Source: a phage | DNA: 64,000 bases | Sequence record: PZ495249.1 | Strand: one strand, 5' to 3' | Shown: in pieces, positions 18,450 through 60,005 of the stretch | How the letters are laid out: every line of letters begins with the position of its first letter | Numbering within the stretch: position 1 is the stretch's first letter | Notes under the pieces: generated by a model | The model's database searches: none | Told to the model about the DNA's origin: nothing | What the model saw: the letters and a program-made list of their open reading frames with translations, nothing else | Position numbers and translations under genes: made by a program

Positions 18450-18524
18450 TGGTTGTAGCAGATGGAATCGAACCATCATCAATCGGTTATCAGCCGAACG
18501 TATTAGCCGTTATACTATGCCACA
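18450..18524 (-). tRNA. tRNA-Ile (anticodon GAU)
   Basis: Encoded CCA, 7-bp acceptor, T-arm GATGG-AATCGAA-CCATC, anticodon loop reads CUGAUAA. Confidence 0.55.
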
Positions 18525-18530
18525 ATTGTT

Positions 18531-18613
18531 TGGCATCCAGGTGAGGAATCTAACCCCTTGAAACTGGTTTTGGAGGCCAGCAACGGGAACACCCATTTTT
18601 AATCTACCCAGAT
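18531..18613 (-). tRNA. degenerate tRNA-like element or pseudo-tRNA
   Basis: Preceded by the ATTGTTTGG boundary motif; acceptor stem possible with two G.U pairs; T-loop degenerate (AATCTAA); no clean anticodon arm. Confidence 0.2.
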
Positions 18614-18619
18614 ATTGTT

Positions 18620-18695
18620 TGGAGGCGGGAGCCGGAATCGAACCGACCTGCGACAAGCATATGAAACTTGTGAGTTCCCAGAACTCTATCCCGCA
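18620..18695 (-). tRNA. tRNA-Met (anticodon CAU)
   Basis: CCA encoded; T-arm GCCGG-AATCGAA-CCGAC; anticodon loop UUCAUAU; position 1-72 appears mismatched. Confidence 0.5.
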
Positions 18696-18699
18696 CTTT

Positions 18700-18775
18700 T
18701 GGTTGATAGTAAGAGAATCAAACTCTTCTCACAACGCCGTATGAAAGCGTCCGAAACATCAGCTTCACACTATCA
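18700..18775 (-). tRNA. tRNA with CAU anticodon (Met, fMet or Ile-lysidine)
   Basis: Perfect acceptor (TGATAGT/ACTATCA), T-arm AAGAG-AATCAAA-CTCTT, anticodon loop UUCAUAC. Confidence 0.5.
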
Positions 18776-18776
18776 A

Positions 18777-19040
18777 TTAAACACGATGGATTATTTTAAC
18801 TGTCTCACCCTTATCATTCATAAGGTAGGCACTTTCATTCCTATGAATAAAGTCCGTAGAGTTGCCACTAATGACACTTGCAATAACACCATCCAGCTTA
18901 TCATAACCTTCAAAATGATATTGGATGTGTATATTTCCATCAAGTTCTATATAATGTTCTTCTTCATCTACCTCGTAAGGTACTGAGTCATAAATTTTTG
19001 TCCCTTTGGGGAACTTGCGAACTATTTTCAATGTATACAT
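18777..19040 (-). CDS. hypothetical protein, 87 aa, inside the tRNA array
   Basis: ORF with good SD (GAAGGAAATACT-ATG); no recognisable motif. Confidence 0.4.
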   Translation of the reverse strand: MYTLKIVRKFPKGTKIYDSVPYEVDEEEHYIELDGNIHIQYHFEGYDKLDGVIASVISGNSTDFIHRNESAYLMNDKGETVKIIHRV

Positions 19041-19124
19041 AGTATTTCCTTCGTAGTGTTTATATTAGTAATATGCCGTCCCAAGCCGAACGGCGATTAG
19101 TGTTTTAGCTTGGCATTGATAATA

Positions 19125-19199
19125 TGGTACTTCCTGGAGGAATCGAACCACCGACGCTCACCTTGTAAGGATGACGTTCTACCATTGAACTAAGGAAGT
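19125..19199 (-). tRNA. tRNA-Val (anticodon UAC)
   Basis: CCA encoded; perfect acceptor ACTTCCT/AGGAAGT; T-loop AATCGAA; anticodon loop CUUACAA. Confidence 0.55.
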
Positions 19200-19272
19200 A
19201 TGGCGGGGATTTTCCGCACTGTCTATCGCGATATGGACTCGGACAGTGTTCTCGGCTAAATACCCCATTGTT

Positions 19273-19359
19273 TGGTACATCAGGTCAGACTCGAACTGAC
19301 ACGCCCTCACGAGCACTGGAACCTAAATCCAGGGCGTCTACCAATTTCGCCACTGATGC
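19273..19359 (-). tRNA. tRNA-Leu (anticodon UAG), type II
   Basis: 87 nt with long variable arm; T-arm GTCAG-ACTCGAA-CTGAC; anticodon stem CTGGA/TCCAG; loop UUUAGGU. Confidence 0.55.
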
Positions 19360-19367
19360 ATTTAATT

Positions 19368-19444
19368 TGGTGGAGAAGTGGAGAATCGAACTCCATACTC
19401 GAAGGTGCAAACCTCGTGTTTTAACCGAATATTACTACATCCCC
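19368..19444 (-). tRNA. tRNA-Ala (anticodon UGC)
   Basis: CCA encoded; T-arm TGGAG-AATCGAA-CTCCA; anticodon loop UUUGCAC. Confidence 0.45.
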
Positions 19445-19506
19445 AATTTGTATACACTACACAGAAGATAGGTCTGATTGCCTCGGCAGTTGCCGTAGTG
19501 TTTATC

Positions 19507-47574: not shown

Positions 47575-48501
47575 ATGAAAGGTATTATCCTTGCGGGTGG
47601 CAGTGGCACTCGTTTGTATCCGGTGACTAAAGGGGTAAGCAAGCAATTGCTCCCCATTTACGATAAACCGATGATCTACTATCCACTATCTGTATTAATG
47701 CTGGCAGGGATAAACGATATCTTAATTATCACAACACCCGAAGATCAGCGTAATTTCCAACAGCTTCTTGATGACGGAGAAGACTTAGGAATCAGCATCA
47801 CCTATGCAACTCAGGATCAACCAAGAGGGTTGGCAGAAGCCTTTATTATCGGTGAAGATTTCATTGGTGATGATTCTGTAGCCCTTGTCCTCGGAGATAA
47901 TTTATTCTTTGGACAAAGTTTCGGTACTCTCTTACATTGTGCAAAAGAGCATGTGGAATTCTATGGCGGAGCCGGAGTATTTGGTTATCGAGTGAACGAT
48001 CCTGAACGATTCGGTGTTGTAGAGTTCGATGACTCAGGTAAGGTTGTGAGTATTGAAGAGAAACCTGTTAATCCTCGCAGCAATTATGCAGTTACTGGAC
48101 TTTATTTCTACGACAATTCTGTGATTCAGAAAGCCAAAGAAGTGCAACCTTCTGCTCGTGGTGAATTGGAGATTACAGACATTAACGAAATGTACCTTAA
48201 AGAACGTGCGCTCCAAGTGTGGAAACTGGGAAGAGGTTTCACTTGGCTTGACACAGGTACACATGCAAGTTTAATGGAGGCATCTCAGTTTGTGCATACA
48301 ATTGAGAAACAGCAAGGAATGAAACTCGCTTGCCTTGAAGAAATTGCATTTATGAATGGGTGGATTACAGCAGAGCAACTTATTCTGACAGGAACTGCCC
48401 TGGCTAAAACAGAATATGGACAATATCTGCTTTCATTAGGAGGGGTTAGATGGAAAGCACAATTAACGTCAGAGAAACCAGCATTGAAGGTCTTGTCGTA
48501 A
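47575..48501 (+). CDS. rmlA: glucose-1-phosphate thymidylyltransferase
   Basis: Signature N-terminus [39 protein letters not shown]. Confidence 0.85.
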
Positions 48502-49019
48502 TAACACCGAGGGTGTTCGGTGATGACCGAGGATTTTTCCTTGAGTCTTTCAACCAAGCCCGATATGATAACCTTATTGGTGAACACACGTTTGTTCAAG
48601 ATAACCACTCCCGTTCTACGAAAGGAGTCCTCCGTGGACTCCACTACCAAGAAACAAATCCCCAGGGGAAATTAGTGAGATGCACAAGCGGCATGGTATT
48701 TGATGTGGCTGTGGACTTACGTGAAGGTAGTCCGACCTTCGGAGAATGGGAAGGTGTTGTACTTAGTGAACAAAACAAAACGCAATTCTGGATTCCACCA
48801 GGATTCGCTCATGGCTTTGTCGTTATCTCAGACGTAGCCGATTTCGAATACAAATGCACTGAATATTACGATCCAACCTCGGAACGCAGTTTACTCTGGA
48901 ATGATCCTGATGTAGCTGTCGATTGGGGATTTGACTTAATCTTTGGTGATGAAAATTATCAGCCTATTCTATCTCAGAAAGATCGAGAGGCCAAAACCCT
49001 ACGGGAGATTTTTGGATGA
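48450..49019 (+). CDS. rmlC: dTDP-4-dehydrorhamnose 3,5-epimerase
   Basis: Cupin epimerase motifs ([17 protein letters not shown]); SD TAGGAGGGGTTAG-ATG; overlaps rmlA 3' end. Confidence 0.75.
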
Positions 49020-49852
49020 AACGATATTTAGTATTGGGTGGTAATGGTCAATTAGGCCAAGCACTCAATAAAGTGAAGCCGGAAGATGTAGATTTAATTT
49101 ATCCTGAACGTTGTGATATTACCGATTTCAAACAGGTGAAGGATCTAATCGTACAAACTATGCCGGAAGCAGTTATCAACTGCGCAGCATATACAGCCGT
49201 CGATAAAGCCGAAGAGGATATGCAGACTGCAATTAGTGTTAATGCATACGGTGCTGCAAATATTGCGAAAATCTGTGGTGAACTTTACATTGACTTAATT
49301 CACATTTCGACGGATTATGTCTTTGATGGTTCATTCCCTGGTATTGAGGGTGCTGAAACAAATCCGTTAAATGTCTACGGTTACTCCAAGCGTTTCGGTG
49401 AAGAATTAGTTCACGCGGTTCATCCTGGGGCATTAATTATCCGTACAGCTTCTGTGTATAGCGAATTCGGTAACAACTTCCTGAAAACTATGTTAAGCCG
49501 CTACAACGGCGGTCAACGTGAGTTTGATGTTGTCTGCGATCATTACTCCTGTCCAACATATGCTCCAGATCTTGCTGAAATGATTTTCACAATGTTGGAA
49601 TATGGTGTTGGTGGTCGTATTCTTCATTACGCAGGTAAAGAATATTTAAGCTGGTATGACTTTGCGACACGTATCTTCTGGGAAATAGATATGACGGTTA
49701 AAGTAAACCCAGTATCTGCTGCTCAGTATAACTCCAAGGCAGTACGACCTGCCAAATCCTATCTTGAAACCAAAGGGTTCCTGACTCCAAAACCAGTAGC
49801 CCACGGTATTAACGAATCACTGAAAGTTCTATTAAATAAGGAGAGAGAATGA
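49016..49852 (+). CDS. rmlD: dTDP-4-dehydrorhamnose reductase
   Basis: N-terminal Rossmann LVLGGNGQLG; 278 aa; position after rmlC. Confidence 0.75.
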   Translation: MKRYLVLGGNGQLGQALNKVKPEDVDLIYPERCDITDFKQVKDLIVQTMPEAVINCAAYTAVDKAEEDMQTAISVNAYGAANIAKICGELYIDLIHISTDYVFDGSFPGIEGAETNPLNVYGYSKRFGEELVHAVHPGALIIRTASVYSEFGNNFLKTMLSRYNGGQREFDVVCDHYSCPTYAPDLAEMIFTMLEYGVGGRILHYAGKEYLSWYDFATRIFWEIDMTVKVNPVSAAQYNSKAVRPAKSYLETKGFLTPKPVAHGINESLKVLLNKERE

Positions 49853-50273: not shown

Positions 50274-50774
50274 ATGGCTAAAGTAGTAGATGAGTTTGAT
50301 ATGCTACGCCTTGACGAGGGACTAAAGCTCACCGTCTATACAGATACCGAAGGGTATTGGACAGTGGGTATTGGTCATCTCTTAACGAAAGTCAAAGATA
50401 AAGCGGTTGCTATCGCTGAACTGGATAAGCTGGTAGGTCGTAAGACCAATGGTGTTATCACAGAAGACGAAGCACGTACAATCTTCAAGAAAGACGTTGA
50501 AAAGGCTATCAAGCAGGTTAAACAGAGTAAGATTCTATCTCCGATTTACGATAAGGTGAGTCCTACTCGTAAAATGGCAATTGTCAATATGGTATTCCAA
50601 ATGGGGATTGCCGGAGCAGAATCTTTCCAAAATAGCTTGACATTAGTGAGCAATTCGTACTATACTCAGGCTGGTATCAATTTACGTAAAAGTAAGTGGT
50701 ACAAACAAACGCCTAATCGTGCAGAGCGAGTTATCAAGGTTCTTACATCTGGAACACTTGATGCTTATAACTAA
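50274..50774 (+). CDS. T4-type lysozyme (GH24 endolysin), 166 aa
   Basis: Near-colinear with T4 lysozyme: EMLRLDEGLKLTVYTDTEGYWTVGIGHLLTK (catalytic Glu/Asp/Thr context), SKWYKQTPNRAERVI; SD AAGGAAAAC-ATG. Confidence 0.85.
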   Translation: MAKVVDEFDMLRLDEGLKLTVYTDTEGYWTVGIGHLLTKVKDKAVAIAELDKLVGRKTNGVITEDEARTIFKKDVEKAIKQVKQSKILSPIYDKVSPTRKMAIVNMVFQMGIAGAESFQNSLTLVSNSYYTQAGINLRKSKWYKQTPNRAERVIKVLTSGTLDAYN

Positions 50775-50775
50775 C

Positions 50776-50800
50776 AGAGGGGCGTAAGCCCCTTATTCAA
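50776..50800 (+). terminator. hairpin (terminator or RNA-processing element)
   Basis: AGGGGC-GTAA-GCCCCT hairpin followed by a weak T-tract. Confidence 0.3.
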
Positions 50801-50811
50801 GGAGTGCTACT

Positions 50812-51564
50812 ATGGGAAATAAACCAGCAAAGTCTCCACGTCAGAAGCTGGCTGCTAATGACCAGAGACAAAGCCGTTATGCGGCGAAAGCTGTGGGGAA
50901 CGATGACTACCGTCTTGACGAATTCTATCCAACCGAGGCTCAGGAAGAGATTGTGCATAGCATGGTCTGGAATGACCTTACGATTGTGAATGGACGTGCA
51001 GGTACTGGTAAGACAACAACCGCTCTGTGGAAAGCGTTACAAATGCTGAAAGCAGGTGATGTACGAAAACTGCTCTTCCTGAAAAACCCAACTGAGGTGG
51101 GTGACGATCAGATTGGTTTCTTATCTGGTGACAAGTCAGAAAAACTGACTGCGCACTACGAGTCTACCAAACGAATTTTCCAGCAATTCATGACCGCAAA
51201 CAAACTGGAAACAGATATTGCTAACGGTAAAATCGAACTAAACATTCCTAACTACGCACTGGGCGCTACCTGGGATAACACAATCATCCTGATTGACGAA
51301 TCTCAGTTAATGTCTCCCGATACCATCAAGCTCCTTCTGGAACGTACTGGTATCAACTCTCGTGTTGTCGTTATCGGTGACGTGAAACAAACTTATGCTA
51401 TCAAACATCGTAAAAACGGACTCGCAGATCTTGTAGATCGTGTAGCTCCGGCTGATGAAGACGGCTATCACACACCTGTAACCGACTTTATCGGATACGT
51501 TGAACTGTCAAGCGATGAGAACCAGCGTTCACGTCTGTCTCAGTTCATCACGGAAATTTATTAA
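50812..51564 (+). CDS. phoH: PhoH-like ATPase, 250 aa
   Basis: Walker A GRAGTGKTT; Walker B IILIDESQ; typical PhoH size. Confidence 0.7.
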   Translation: MGNKPAKSPRQKLAANDQRQSRYAAKAVGNDDYRLDEFYPTEAQEEIVHSMVWNDLTIVNGRAGTGKTTTALWKALQMLKAGDVRKLLFLKNPTEVGDDQIGFLSGDKSEKLTAHYESTKRIFQQFMTANKLETDIANGKIELNIPNYALGATWDNTIILIDESQLMSPDTIKLLLERTGINSRVVVIGDVKQTYAIKHRKNGLADLVDRVAPADEDGYHTPVTDFIGYVELSSDENQRSRLSQFITEIY

Positions 51565-51601: not shown

Positions 51602-52093
51602 ATGGCATTTGTTGAAATAGGTAGAAGCGGTATTGACGAGTGTTACCAAGCGGGTTTAGTAAAGCCGAACGAGTTCCGGCAGATTTATGTAAACAAGATT
51701 GAACAAGAGATCGCTCTCTTACTTGAAAACCTAACACTTAAACAAAAGTGGGGAATGTTCAAATCTTGGTTAAAGAATGAGGATTGGATTTTATCCCATT
51801 ACCAGGAACTTTCTGATAGTAAAGACGGACTGTTTGAGTGTATAATAGAGATAGCCGCCTCAAATCCACAACTTCTTCATATTGATGAAGAAGATTCCAA
51901 ACTACTTTTCCTAAGCAGTATTTTCCACAAGAAATCCTTACTCGTTCGAGAGTGCAGTGATTTATTTAATCACCCGCTCACCCGTACCGAGAAGATTCTG
52001 GTGGACAAAGAAACGTTACGCGCAATTGACTATCTACGAAAATACGTGAACGGTGGAAAAGCAGTTCTTAAAACATTGCAGGAGGAAGAATAA
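51602..52093 (+). CDS. hypothetical protein, 163 aa
   Basis: ORF with SD (ATGGAGGATAA). Confidence 0.4.
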   Translation: MAFVEIGRSGIDECYQAGLVKPNEFRQIYVNKIEQEIALLLENLTLKQKWGMFKSWLKNEDWILSHYQELSDSKDGLFECIIEIAASNPQLLHIDEEDSKLLFLSSIFHKKSLLVRECSDLFNHPLTRTEKILVDKETLRAIDYLRKYVNGGKAVLKTLQEEE

Positions 52094-52782
52094 TGACAAC
52101 GATTATTGCAACAAAGACTAAGATTCTAAGCGACGGTAAAACTACCGTAGGCAATCGTGTAGACGATTACGACTTTAAGAAAGTACGTAAGATTGGGGAT
52201 TATCTGGTCGGTGGCGCTGGTCGTCTAACCTCCATCCTCACATTCTTCGCCTGGTTTGAGCAGAATCTGCAATGTCAAGCGGCACAAGAATCTATCCCAG
52301 GGTTGATGATTCAATCAGATCCTGACAAGGACGACGAAGACTTCATTGCGTTAGTTGTCCATCCTGACGGTAAAATTTTCATCCACGAAGGTGCTGATCC
52401 TCGTCGAGCATTCCCAATCGAGCGTGAATACTACGCTGTTGGTAGTGGTGCAGACTTCGCATTAGCGGCGCTTGATGCCGGAGCCACTCCAGAACAAGCA
52501 ATGGAAGTTGCAAAACTCCGTGATGCTTTCTCGGGTGGTGAAACTTTCGTAGAAGAACGCGAAGAAATTGTTGACATTACTGATGAAGATCTGAGAAACT
52601 TCTCAAGAGAGCAGCTTCTGAATCTGCTTCTTACTGGTTCTCCAGAAGGTGATGCAGCACAACAGTTGCTGGCTACGCCGGAAGAAGAACATCCTAAAGG
52701 TGATACTGGTGAAATGGGAGTTTCTTGTGGTATTCCTGGTGTTGCAGGTGCTACTTTTACAACTCCTTCACTGGGCGCTTAA
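52093..52782 (+). CDS. HslV-like N-terminal-nucleophile peptidase with acidic C-terminal extension, 229 aa
   Basis: MTTIIATKTKIL...GNRV...KKVRKIGDYLVGGAGRLTSILTFF and AVGSGADFALAA parallel HslV (Thr at position 2). Confidence 0.55.
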   Translation: MTTIIATKTKILSDGKTTVGNRVDDYDFKKVRKIGDYLVGGAGRLTSILTFFAWFEQNLQCQAAQESIPGLMIQSDPDKDDEDFIALVVHPDGKIFIHEGADPRRAFPIEREYYAVGSGADFALAALDAGATPEQAMEVAKLRDAFSGGETFVEEREEIVDITDEDLRNFSREQLLNLLLTGSPEGDAAQQLLATPEEEHPKGDTGEMGVSCGIPGVAGATFTTPSLGA

Positions 52783-52786
52783 TACT

Positions 52787-52806
52787 ATGCCCCTTCGGGG
52801 GCTTTT
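52787..52806 (+). terminator. intrinsic terminator
   Basis: GCCCC-TTCG-GGGGC hairpin followed by TTTT. Confidence 0.4.
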
Positions 52807-57936: not shown

Positions 57937-58095
57937 ATGAAAACGACAGAACAACTGATCGCGCAGAAACTGGAAGAAGCAATTGTGATGGCTCGTGCTG
58001 AGGGCTTAGGTCAAAACTATTTCAACATCACCCTCGAAGATGGTGAAAATGTTGAAGTGAACGTTCAATGGCGATCTTCTTCCTATGACTGCTAA
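57937..58095 (+). CDS. small protein, 52 aa, member of the C-terminal WxSSSxxC family
   Basis: SD GGAGGTAAGAG-ATG; ends ...NVQWRSSSYDC-stop; below the supplied track cutoff. Confidence 0.4.
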   Translation: MKTTEQLIAQKLEEAIVMARAEGLGQNYFNITLEDGENVEVNVQWRSSSYDC

Positions 58096-58378
58096 TGTGG
58101 GATTAGAACACTCCTTCCTTGCCTCTTGGCAAGGATGGGATGAAGTGGGAAGTGCAGGTGATCTTTGCTTCTATGGTTGCACTTTAGCGAACCACCTGAA
58201 AGGGATGGAGCCAGAGGGAACCAAGGAGATTATTACAATCTTCCTGATGAGTGAGTCAACTGTGCAATTTGACTTCTACGGTGAGAGCGCGTTTTCTGAC
58301 CCTCGTGATGCTTACTTGGGAAGCAAAGCATTTAAAATTAAAGCAGTATTAGAAGAGGAGATTCCTTGCGATGAGTAA
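58085..58378 (+). CDS. hypothetical protein, 97 aa
   Basis: Track ORF; start uncertain; no tail motif. Confidence 0.3.
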   Translation: MTANVGLEHSFLASWQGWDEVGSAGDLCFYGCTLANHLKGMEPEGTKEIITIFLMSESTVQFDFYGESAFSDPRDAYLGSKAFKIKAVLEEEIPCDE

Positions 58379-58790
58379 ATATGTAACTGGTCAAATTTTT
58401 GAAGACAACTGGGATGACGAAGTGGGGCGTATTGTATACGCTAACGGCATCTGGTCTAACGATGAAGACCGCGCTGCCTTTGAAGATTCGTATGGCGGAA
58501 TGCCGGACGATATGCCAGAGGTGATCCTGTACGAATTCATGTACCATGATGAATTTGTCGAGGGCGAAGCAGCGATCAAAGATTTTGTTCGTGAGCATGG
58601 CCTTATCGACGTTGCAGAGCGTGAGTGTAAAGATCGAGAACGCCAAGTGATTGTTGATACCCTGAATGCAATGGGCGTAGATACCGCCGATCTGATTGTT
58701 TCAGAAGGTCGTGTTTACATGGGGAGCGACGAGTGTGAAGCCTATATTCAAGGCAGTCATGCTTGGTGTTCAAGTAGCATGATTTGCTAA
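58371..58790 (+). CDS. acidic protein, 139 aa, WxSSSxxC family
   Basis: Ends ...GSHAWCSSSMIC-stop. Confidence 0.45.
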   Translation: MSKYVTGQIFEDNWDDEVGRIVYANGIWSNDEDRAAFEDSYGGMPDDMPEVILYEFMYHDEFVEGEAAIKDFVREHGLIDVAERECKDRERQVIVDTLNAMGVDTADLIVSEGRVYMGSDECEAYIQGSHAWCSSSMIC

Positions 58791-58799
58791 GGAGAGTGG

Positions 58800-59234
58800 A
58801 TGTATAATAACACTGATAATCTCGAAGTCGGAAAAGACTTCTACGATCTGAATACTGGTGAGTATGTCTTTACCGTTATTTATGATGGTGACGACGACAC
58901 CCGCATCCTGGTAGAAGGTATCCCAACAAAGGTGCAGAGTCAGTATAGTGATTACATGTATGATATCGTGGCATACAATAAGGACACTATGCACCCTTTA
59001 GACGAAGATGATGTGAACGATATTTGTTACAACAATTTGATTGTCACAAAGGAATATCTGGACGCCATCAATGCCACGAAACAAGTATTGATTAATATCT
59101 GGGAACAATCTGGTATTCAAGAACCATTCGTGTATGAAGATGGGAATTTCTATGTTGGTAAAGAACAAGTTCTTTCAGCCCACATTAATTCCGGCTACGA
59201 ACACGGTTGGATTTCGAGTAGTATCTGCTGGTGA
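58800..59234 (+). CDS. acidic protein, 144 aa, WxSSSxxC family
   Basis: Ends ...YEHGWISSSICW-stop; SD AAGGAGAGTGG-ATG. Confidence 0.45.
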   Translation: MYNNTDNLEVGKDFYDLNTGEYVFTVIYDGDDDTRILVEGIPTKVQSQYSDYMYDIVAYNKDTMHPLDEDDVNDICYNNLIVTKEYLDAINATKQVLINIWEQSGIQEPFVYEDGNFYVGKEQVLSAHINSGYEHGWISSSICW

Positions 59235-59458
59235 GTGTTGGAACTGTAGCGGTATGGATAAAGTCTGAATCTGGTGATGATTATCTGTACTGCTTTGAGA
59301 ACCAATCCTTAGAGCAAATTTCCAACAATCTGACAGAGAACCTGGAAATGTTTTGCCCTATTTGTGATTGGAAAACTACCGGAGACAATAAAGACTTCGT
59401 TAGTGATGTTAAGATGTTTATGTCGGATTTATATGATAAATCATGGGAGAGAGAATGA
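59231..59458 (+). CDS. hypothetical protein, 75 aa
   Basis: ATGA overlap with the upstream gene; no tail motif. Confidence 0.4.
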   Translation: MSVGTVAVWIKSESGDDYLYCFENQSLEQISNNLTENLEMFCPICDWKTTGDNKDFVSDVKMFMSDLYDKSWERE

Positions 59459-59649
59459 GTGAATTTAAAACAGTAAGTGAAGCAGTGGCAGCGGCAAATG
59501 CTGCCCTCGCTGAGGCAGAACGCCTATCTCTGGAAACAGGTGAAGGGTTTGGTTTCCATCCGTGTTATGGTATGGGCGGTTACTTCGATCCAGAAGAAGA
59601 AAACGAGTACACTGGGGATCACTGGTTCCCATCTTCACTGGGTTGCTAA
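59455..59649 (+). CDS. small protein, 64 aa, WxSSSxxC family
   Basis: Start at ATG with SD GGGAGAGAGA; ends ...GDHWFPSSLGC-stop. Confidence 0.45.
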   Translation: MSEFKTVSEAVAAANAALAEAERLSLETGEGFGFHPCYGMGGYFDPEEENEYTGDHWFPSSLGC

Positions 59650-60005
59650 TGCAGCCATTTGAGTGTAAAGTGTTTATTGCAGGGCATGAAGTTATGCCCT
59701 TTGATGAAAACGTGAGTATTGAGATAAGGAGAACACCTGTGGACAAGAAAGAAATTGAAAACCTGATCCGTGAAAAAACTGCTGCTGCCGAAGCCTACAT
59801 GCAGTCTGTGAAAGACGAAGTGGCTGAACTGGCAGATAAAGCTGGCGTTCAGGCTTATTGGGGCGAATATGGTAGCGGTGAAACCTACTACCCTGTTGGT
59901 ACAGATGTAAATGCCGAATACATCGGTTGGGAAGCGAGTGAGTATGCAGATGAGAACGGTATCCTGACTCAAGGTATGTGGATCTCTTCAAGCTCTATGT
60001 GCTAA
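59649..60005 (+). CDS. acidic protein, 118 aa, WxSSSxxC family
   Basis: ATG overlaps the upstream stop (TAATG); ends ...TQGMWISSSSMC-stop. Confidence 0.45.
   Translation: MQPFECKVFIAGHEVMPFDENVSIEIRRTPVDKKEIENLIREKTAAAEAYMQSVKDEVAELADKAGVQAYWGEYGSGETYYPVGTDVNAEYIGWEASEYADENGILTQGMWISSSSMC

Follow-up and report, generated by a model that had tools for sequence, protein, structure and literature searches.

In this study, we analyzed a stretch of 64,000 nucleotides of phage DNA from sequence record PZ495249.1 (hereafter the window), with the focus on a gene that encodes a threonine peptidase of the proteasome-beta/HslV superfamily of N-terminal nucleophile (Ntn) hydrolases. The peptidase gene is the last of three consecutive genes on the plus strand, of which the first encodes a PhoH-like P-loop ATPase and the second a small protein of phrog_14834, hereafter X (Table 1). 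The source phage is related to the phi92/phAPEC8-like myoviruses but has diverged from them, with DNA about 72% identical to that of the nearest isolates and 99% identical to that of three metagenomic contigs in IMG/VR. The first-pass annotation of the window had proposed an HslV-like threonine peptidase at this locus with a PhoH ATPase two genes upstream. Both genes lie where it had placed them, the peptidase open reading frame (ORF) was confirmed on the plus strand, and all quoted motifs, which included the M-T-T-I-I start, VGNRV, KKVRK, GGAG and AVGSGADFALAA, were found in the translated product.

The identity of the peptidase as an Ntn protein of the proteasome-beta/HslV superfamily is firm. 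The phrog_1040 profile, whose name is 'peptidase HslV family', matched the peptidase with an E value of 9.4e-55 and 187 bits, in which residues 1-194 were aligned to positions 14-201 of the 277 profile positions. The Pfam family Proteasome (PF00227) matched residues 11-61 only, and its 23.4 bits barely exceeded the cut-off of 22.4. Among the solved structures, the best sequence matches were all HslV, with E values ranging from 2e-4 to 1e-3. The AlphaFold model of the peptidase, which is a monomer built on 38 homologues and has a mean pLDDT of 85.8, contains the alpha-beta-beta-alpha sandwich of Ntn hydrolases, so that the predicted structure agrees with the fold that had been set as a test of the earlier proposal. 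When this model was used as a Foldseek query, HslV, the archaeal 20S beta subunit and the Betaproteobacteria proteasome homologue (BPH) were matched with E values of 1e-10 to 1e-8, a probability of 1.00 and identities of 20-24%. In addition, 43 viral structure clusters matched the model at E <= 0.001. A full-library phmmer search with the peptidase returned 1714 cluster representatives at E <= 0.001, and the top representatives were not canonical HslV. They were proteins of about 130-190 residues, many of them of 130-160 residues, and mostly started with MTT.

The peptidase was found by tblastn in 167 phage records, 107 of which are of Escherichia phages, and in 28 IMG/VR loci. The genomes of 60 peptidase-carrying records, sampled evenly from all 167, ranged from 115 to 161 kb in length. 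No close copies were found in bacterial genomes, where the search returned only relatives with identities of 26-43% and one contig of 425 bp. The exact sequence of the peptidase had no match in a collection of 15 billion proteins, and none of the PADLOC models of anti-phage defence and counter-defence matched it at E <= 0.1. In many of the 167 records, the protein is already named 'peptidase HslV family', 'HslV family peptidase', 'putative 20S proteasome' or 'putative proteasome component'. The peptidase is thus not of a new kind: annotations of its family date back to 2012, and a description followed in 2021. As the result of a genome scan, its identification repeats the existing annotation, and what is new here is one more member of the family.

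Catalytic core and C-terminal extension

The catalytic core of the AlphaFold model is a beta-sandwich with a long helix H1 (residues 45-67), the helices H3 and H4 (residues 120-128 and 133-143) and, at residues 151-155, the final strand. The fold had previously been assigned to the N-terminal 170 residues. The fold itself was recovered, but the core ends near residue 155. Similarly, the extension behind the core had been described as acidic and about 60 residues long. It is indeed acidic, with a net charge of -10, but comprises about 74 residues and consists of a two-helix module, which is predicted with confidence, followed by a disordered tail.

The residues T2, D14, K30, S118, D144 and S147 of the peptidase correspond to Thr1, Asp17, Lys33, Ser129, Asp166 and Ser169 of the proteasome, respectively, and the GGAG motif is also present. 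Their conservation was assessed with a profile made from the 38-sequence alignment, to which 225 homologues with identities down to about 30% were aligned. The threonine nucleophile, whose conservation among homologues was the other test set for the earlier proposal, was found in 196 of the 200 homologues that cover this position, and the remaining four possess a serine. The equivalents of Asp17 and Lys33 were found in 214 of 216 and 217 of 219 homologues, respectively. In the set of 225 homologues, the equivalent of Ser129 is a serine in 204 and a threonine in 16, the equivalent of Asp166 is kept in 209, and that of Ser169 is a serine or threonine in 211. Conservation of this catalytic set across the aligned family indicates an enzyme that has been kept active by selection. 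Moreover, most homologues start with M-T-T. Because the threonine follows the initiator methionine directly, the peptidase has no propeptide. A threonine at position 2 permits removal of the methionine by methionine aminopeptidase, and HslV of Escherichia coli gains its Thr1 in this way.

The first part of the extension is a conserved two-helix module, with two short helices predicted at residues 164-169 and 172-181. The enterobacterial relatives follow its pattern, h-T/S-x-E-x-h-x-x-h-S/T-K/R-E-E/Q-L-h-x-h-h, and the module is still recognizable in the homologues from Klebsiella KP13-16, Vibrio and Aeromonas phages, whose identities to the peptidase ranged from 34 to 46%. Judged from these alignments, the two-helix module is a hallmark of an extended subfamily.

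The tail that follows the module is variable. In the model, it begins with a short helix (residues 188-193), and the block-mean pLDDT is 76 for residues 191-200 and 44-51 from residue 201 onwards, with residues 208-221 below 50. Among 53 distinct versions of the tail behind the module, 50 are acidic, with net charges ranging from -3 to -10, and the lengths ranged from 5 to about 90 residues. Variation is most pronounced in the last 22 or so codons of the gene. This cassette is only about 50% identical to that of metagenomic twins that are otherwise 99-100% identical, from which it also differs by indels of 9 and 3 nucleotides, while the flanks are identical. The cassette of the source phage resembles instead the tail of P0002, a more distantly related protein (82% identity). 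Given that the divergence is confined between identical flanks and that the cassette is similar to the tail of P0002, the comparison points to an exchange of the cassette by recombination rather than to drift.

The C-termini of other homologues also differ. The last 40-60 residues of the homologues from Vibrio, Aeromonas and Klebsiella KP13-16 phages (loci L003, L004, L005 and L006) look like a helix-extension-helix (SAP/Rho-N-like) element, for instance LKGWAKALGIKFAHNISEATLVERV. Pfam found no such domain in them at E <= 0.1, and we do not claim one. The members of another subfamily (the metagenomic homologues P0061-P0070 and P0080; locus L009) have a C-terminal domain of 100-200 residues that ends in KWRLHNA or WKLADE and contains CxxC-like pairs. 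This domain had no match in Pfam.

Table 1. Features of the peptidase gene and its surroundings in the window (aa, amino acid residues; CDS, coding sequence; nt, nucleotides).
Feature	Position	Strand	Basis
Strong match to a sigma-70-like promoter, TTGACA-18-TATACT (11/12), upstream of PhoH	50637..50666	+	Consensus match only
GC-rich hairpin between the genes for lysozyme and PhoH	50777..50794	+	-13.9 kcal/mol, z -3.5
PhoH-like P-loop ATPase, first gene of the block	50812..51564	+	Profile matches
Gene X (phrog_14834, unknown function), 163 aa, predicted all-helical	51602..52093	+	ORF, profile match, AlphaFold
Ribosome-binding site AGGAGG, 7 nt 5' of the peptidase ATG, inside the 3' end of gene X	52080..52085	+	Sequence reading
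Peptidase CDS, phage proteasome-like (PPH-type, phrog_1040) Thr1 peptidase, 229 aa	52093..52782	+	Orthologue of phi92 gp058
Catalytic core, aa 1-155, beta-sandwich	52093..52557	+	AlphaFold, Foldseek
Thr2 codon; N-terminal nucleophile Thr1 after removal of the initiator Met	52096..52098	+	Invariant column; homologue counts
D14 codon	52132..52134	+	Invariant column; homologue counts
K30 codon	52180..52182	+	Invariant column; homologue counts
Acidic loop, aa 68-84 (IPGLMIQSDPDKDDEDF, net charge -5), in place of HslV helix H2 and pore region	52294..52344	+	AlphaFold; alignment; PMC5777263, PMC8665760
S118 codon	52444..52446	+	Invariant column; homologue counts
D144 codon	52522..52524	+	Invariant column; homologue counts
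S147 codon	52531..52533	+	Invariant column; homologue counts
Conserved two-helix module, aa 159-186 (IVDITDEDLRNFSREQLLNLLLTGSPEG)	52567..52650	+	AlphaFold; alignments
Variable acidic tail, aa 187-229	52651..52779	+	AlphaFold; tail comparison
Hypervariable cassette, last ~22 codons	about 52713..52776	+	Alignment to twin contigs L010:4793-5025 and L011:6508-6740
Hairpin GCCCC-UUCG-GGGGC followed by UUUU, directly after the peptidase stop	52789..52806	+	-10.8 kcal/mol, z -0.9

HslU interface and probable mode of action

Similar as its fold is to that of HslV, the peptidase is not HslV proper. The NCBIfam equivalogs of HslV, TIGR03692 and NF003964, gave 29.9 and 27.9 bits, far below their cut-offs of 137 and 157.75, respectively. 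Where HslV has the helix H2, the AlphaFold model of the peptidase has a coil with pLDDT values of 80-91. The basic pore cluster of HslV is formed by R86, R89 and K90 (PMC5777263). When the peptidase was aligned to E. coli HslV with HMMER, these residues fell on K79, E82 and D83 of the peptidase, which are within the segment SDPDKDDEDF of the acidic loop. At least 90% of the close family keep D81 and E82, and roughly three in four of the 225 homologues have an aspartate or glutamate at these positions.

The pocket that holds the C-terminal tail of HslU consists of F54, F57, Q114, A79 and K80 of HslV (PMC6429459). Of these five residues, only F57 is identical in the peptidase. F54 is replaced by a leucine, and Q114, A79 and K80 are replaced by P, Q and S, two of the latter three falling in the lost H2. 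HslV K28, which binds the terminal carboxylate of HslU, aligns to D25 of the peptidase. As the peptidase fails the HslV cut-offs and has lost H2 as well as the HslU-facing features, it is therefore placed in a separate branch of phage proteasome homologues.

A partner ATPase was also sought. Homologues of E. coli HslU, ClpX, Lon and ClpP were not found in the window (tblastn and phmmer, E > 0.2), nor within 6 kb of the peptidase gene in 35 related loci. The first-pass annotation had stated that no AAA+ gene similar to hslU is adjacent, and this holds in the window, in the 35 loci and in the phi92-like group. HslU-like genes were found in 164 phage records. They are concentrated in jumbo phages, and 4 of the 164 records are named Escherichia. 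An acidic loop in place of the basic pore cluster, together with the retention of one of five pocket residues, argues for HslU-independent action, as has been proposed for BPH. We therefore infer that the peptidase probably acts without HslU.

Given the results above, we favor as the probable explanation that the gene encodes an active, ATPase-independent Ntn threonine hydrolase of the proteasome-beta/HslV superfamily that belongs to the phage PPH/RPC branch. In such an enzyme, the methionine aminopeptidase of the host would expose Thr1, as for E. coli HslV. The subunits would then assemble into a ring similar to those of HslV and BPH, with the active sites inside, and the ring would cleave peptides or unfolded and disordered proteins with no ATPase involved, as proposed for BPH. 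The acidic loop, the two-helix module and the variable acidic tail could serve in gating or in the recognition of substrates or partners. The peptidase probably forms a ring, in which the acidic pore-side loop and the modular extension probably govern access or targeting.

Several points weigh against this explanation. The host encodes HslU, and the independence of the peptidase from it is deduced from interface residues that are lost in a local alignment. Some proteasome homologues may not form rings (Fuchs et al., PMC8665760). The extension has only a putative role, and its tail is modeled at low confidence. No experiment on any member of the phage branch was found in the searchable literature. 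Finally, BPH has no demonstrated substrate (PMC5777263), so that the analogy with it provides little mechanistic detail.

Alternatively, the peptidase might borrow HslU of the host, either by docking in place of the host HslV and thereby redirecting ATP-dependent degradation or by titrating HslU. For this, HslU is available in the host, F57 of the tail pocket is kept and a similar residue occupies the position of F54. The extension also contains DEDLRNF (residues 164-170), which in the six-frame translation of the window is the only 7-mer with at least five of seven identities to DEDLSRF of the E. coli HslU C-terminus, DEDLSRFIL. However, DEDLRNF is internal and followed by a helix, it is only partly conserved, with an aspartate at its third position in 25 of 75 relatives, and about two matches of this quality are expected by chance in the window. 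We therefore rejected it as a mimic of the HslU tail and regard it as a weak lead only. Moreover, the helix H2 on the ATPase-facing side is gone, three of the five pocket residues and the entire basic pore cluster are replaced, and BPH, which itself descends from HslV, failed to pull down HslU (PMC5777263). Borrowing of HslU is thus unlikely.

Another alternative is that the peptidase is an Ntn enzyme other than a general protease, such as a sequence-specific ligase or transpeptidase similar to the archaeal connectase, or an enzyme that processes a single target. The proteasome-like family includes a monomeric ligase, and many of its homologues may have architectures other than rings (Fuchs et al., PMC8665760). 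Standard assays also found no substrates for BPH (PMC5777263). The peptidase, however, lacks the connectase-type insertion between the strands S3 and S4. It also has H1 in its model, while connectase is without the entire first pair of helices, and it keeps the full catalytic set of the proteasome, including the equivalents of Asp166 and Ser169. A ligase or dedicated processing enzyme is accordingly quite unlikely, and an ATPase-independent hydrolase remains the explanation that we prefer.

The PhoH-X-peptidase block

The order PhoH-X-peptidase was found in every related locus whose peptidase is at least 43% identical to that of the window, although at locus L008 PhoH was seen in the list of called genes only, and a lysozyme gene usually lies just before the block. 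The genes downstream of the block vary: a DNA methyltransferase gene in the window, rml genes at L008, Dam at L009 and a phosphatase gene in KP13-16. In the enterobacterial clade, X is always between PhoH and the peptidase. The model of X is all-helical with a pLDDT of 93.4, and neither the structure search nor the family libraries gave an informative match for it. The stop codon of X overlaps the start codon of the peptidase gene (TAATG at 52091-52095), and this overlap indicates translational coupling of X to the peptidase.

In Vibrio phages, PhoH is just upstream of the peptidase gene, and in an Aeromonas phage, a PhoH-like gene is about 2.7 kb upstream. X is absent from these phages. At its position, Vibrio qdvp001 carries gp057 and Aeromonas 4L372D carries 227. 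These two genes appeared to share a C-terminal motif with X, but homology was rejected at phmmer E values of 0.5-0.9. In addition, no X or PhoH lies within 5-6 kb of the gene in short PPH-type loci. The block is therefore clade-specific. Shared ancestry may explain its conservation.

Hairpins flank the block, of which only the upstream one is above shuffled sequence. The hairpin behind the peptidase gene is no better than shuffled sequence and was not among the terminator-like sites of the scan, so that an end of the operon at this place is only suggested. It is possibly a terminator or an RNA-stabilizing hairpin at the end of the block.

A natural deletion bears on whether the block is needed. 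In Escherichia phage VEcB (MT932211.1, 21543-21962; protein P0060), residues 1-115 of PhoH are fused in frame to the peptidase from residue 63 to its end. The deletion takes out X together with the C-terminal half of PhoH and the catalytic N-terminal part of the peptidase, and VEcB is a propagating isolate. Provided that the assembly is correct, the block would therefore be dispensable for propagation, and the peptidase gene would be an accessory gene that is not essential for growth in culture.

The arrangement of the block also raises the possibility that its three products form one machine, in which PhoH would be the ATPase, X an adaptor or cap and the peptidase the degrading chamber. The invariant gene order amid rearranged flanking genes, the position of PhoH, or of a PhoH-like gene, ahead of the peptidase gene in the Vibrio and Aeromonas phages, the TAATG overlap, the flanking hairpins and the deletion across all three genes at once in VEcB are all consistent with it. 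Nevertheless, we regard such a machine as very unlikely. An extended version of it is a phage degradation module in which the coupled X would cap or adapt the ring, PhoH or the tail would deliver targets of the host or targets bound to nucleic acid, and the tail would be swapped to follow these targets. This version is likewise very unlikely. If it were true, the PhoH-X-peptidase module would be a pairing of ATPase and protease of a kind not described before.

The first-pass annotation had further suggested a family of small tagged proteins at 57.9-60.0 kb as possible substrates of the peptidase. Five small ORFs at 57937-60005 end in a motif of the W-x-SSS-x-x-C type (WRSSSYDC, WCSSSMIC, WISSSICW, FPSSLGC and WISSSSMC), and two of the five match the C-terminal part of phrog_899, a family of unknown function. 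The label 'inhibitor of prohead protease' on a relative from a T4-like phage was discarded as unreliable, as the neighboring names look shifted or positional. That the peptidase processes or degrades these proteins has a probability close to nil: they are encoded by the same phage only about 5 kb away and share their C-terminal motif, but the tagged module occurs in 425 phage records (tblastn with one tagged protein), many of them T4-like with genomes of 165-183 kb against 115-161 kb for the sampled peptidase records, no tagged member lies within the 8.5-kb stretches around the peptidase genes of the Vibrio and Aeromonas phages, and there is no coupling in sequence or position. The two families are therefore not distributed in parallel, and a protease-substrate link has no support.

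Other features were noted around the peptidase and elsewhere in the window. In Aeromonas phage 4L372D, two phrog_1040 genes are adjacent (L005:3432-3983 and L005:4001-4885). The first, 4L372D_228, encodes 183 residues with a threonine after the start codon (E value of 9.6e-26) and is directly upstream of the gene for a homologue of 294 residues. It is possible that this pair forms a hetero-oligomer. A dTDP-rhamnose set of rmlA, rmlC and rmlD-like ORFs at 47575-49852 lies upstream of the genes for glutaredoxin and lysozyme, an order shared with phi92, and the rml genes of the related contig L008 are downstream of the peptidase gene instead. Seventeen tRNA genes are on the minus strand at 18453-23838 (Rfam gathering hits), and the Rfam scan gave no match near the peptidase locus.

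Proteasome-family proteases of viruses of bacteria have been recognized by sequence analysis only, and the gene described here, whose active site is intact, is a good representative of them. It comes from a group of E. coli and Klebsiella phages that are easy to handle and are used in therapy collections. The natural deletion mutant and the conserved three-gene block can guide experiments, and the discovery of substrates would show what a phage gains from its own ATPase-free relative of the proteasome.

Comparison with known systems

The closest counterparts of the peptidase are gp058 of phi92 and its orthologues from the phi92/phAPEC8-like myoviruses (Stephanstirmvirinae; phrog_1040), with an identity of 75% over residues 1-202. 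phi92 gp058 is annotated 'peptidase HslV family / putative 20S proteasome' and has the same domain layout as the peptidase. The surroundings are also conserved gene for gene: rml genes, glutaredoxin, lysozyme, PhoH, gp059 (X), gp058, gp057 and a DNA methyltransferase. The last 25 or so residues of the phi92-type orthologues, however, are a tail cassette different from that of the source phage.

Phage-borne homologues of the proteasome were surveyed in silico by Fuchs, Alva and Lupas (2021; PMC8665760), and PPH and RPC are the homologues without the helix H2 (PMC8665760). Similar to PPH and RPC, the peptidase has no propeptide, keeps the catalytic triad, is missing H2, has a compact group-I core and is carried by a tailed phage. 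Different from PPH, which is described as a protein of about 140 residues, it has 229 residues, which include a conserved helical module and a tail. RPC does possess a C-terminal domain but is listed for Proteobacteria only, whereas the peptidase is phage-borne. By these published descriptions, the peptidase belongs to the phage PPH/RPC branch as a whole, in which WP_042125023.1 (PPH) and WP_140207863 (RPC) are the reference sequences.

HslV (ClpQ) shares with the peptidase its fold, the MTTI start that contains Thr1 and the GxAG and GSG motifs, at the identities of 20-24% found in the structural alignments. The peptidase differs from it in the absence of H2, the absence of an hslU gene, the acidic loop in place of the basic pore cluster and the additional extension of 74 residues.

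BPH (PDB 5ovs and 5ovu), which is derived from HslV and stands alone, was among the top structural matches of the peptidase. The loop in its pore region is acidic, and an unfoldase partner is absent (PMC5777263). Different from the peptidase, BPH keeps H1 and H2, forms a tetradecamer, is encoded on bacterial chromosomes and has no C-terminal extension, and its sequence is no closer to the peptidase than that of HslV. BPH is the closest analogy for a probable ATPase-free action of the peptidase. Jumbo phages, such as the Erwinia phages RAY and Special G, possess proteins of the proteasome family together with an HslU-like ATPase, whereas the phi92-like group carries its peptidase without HslU.

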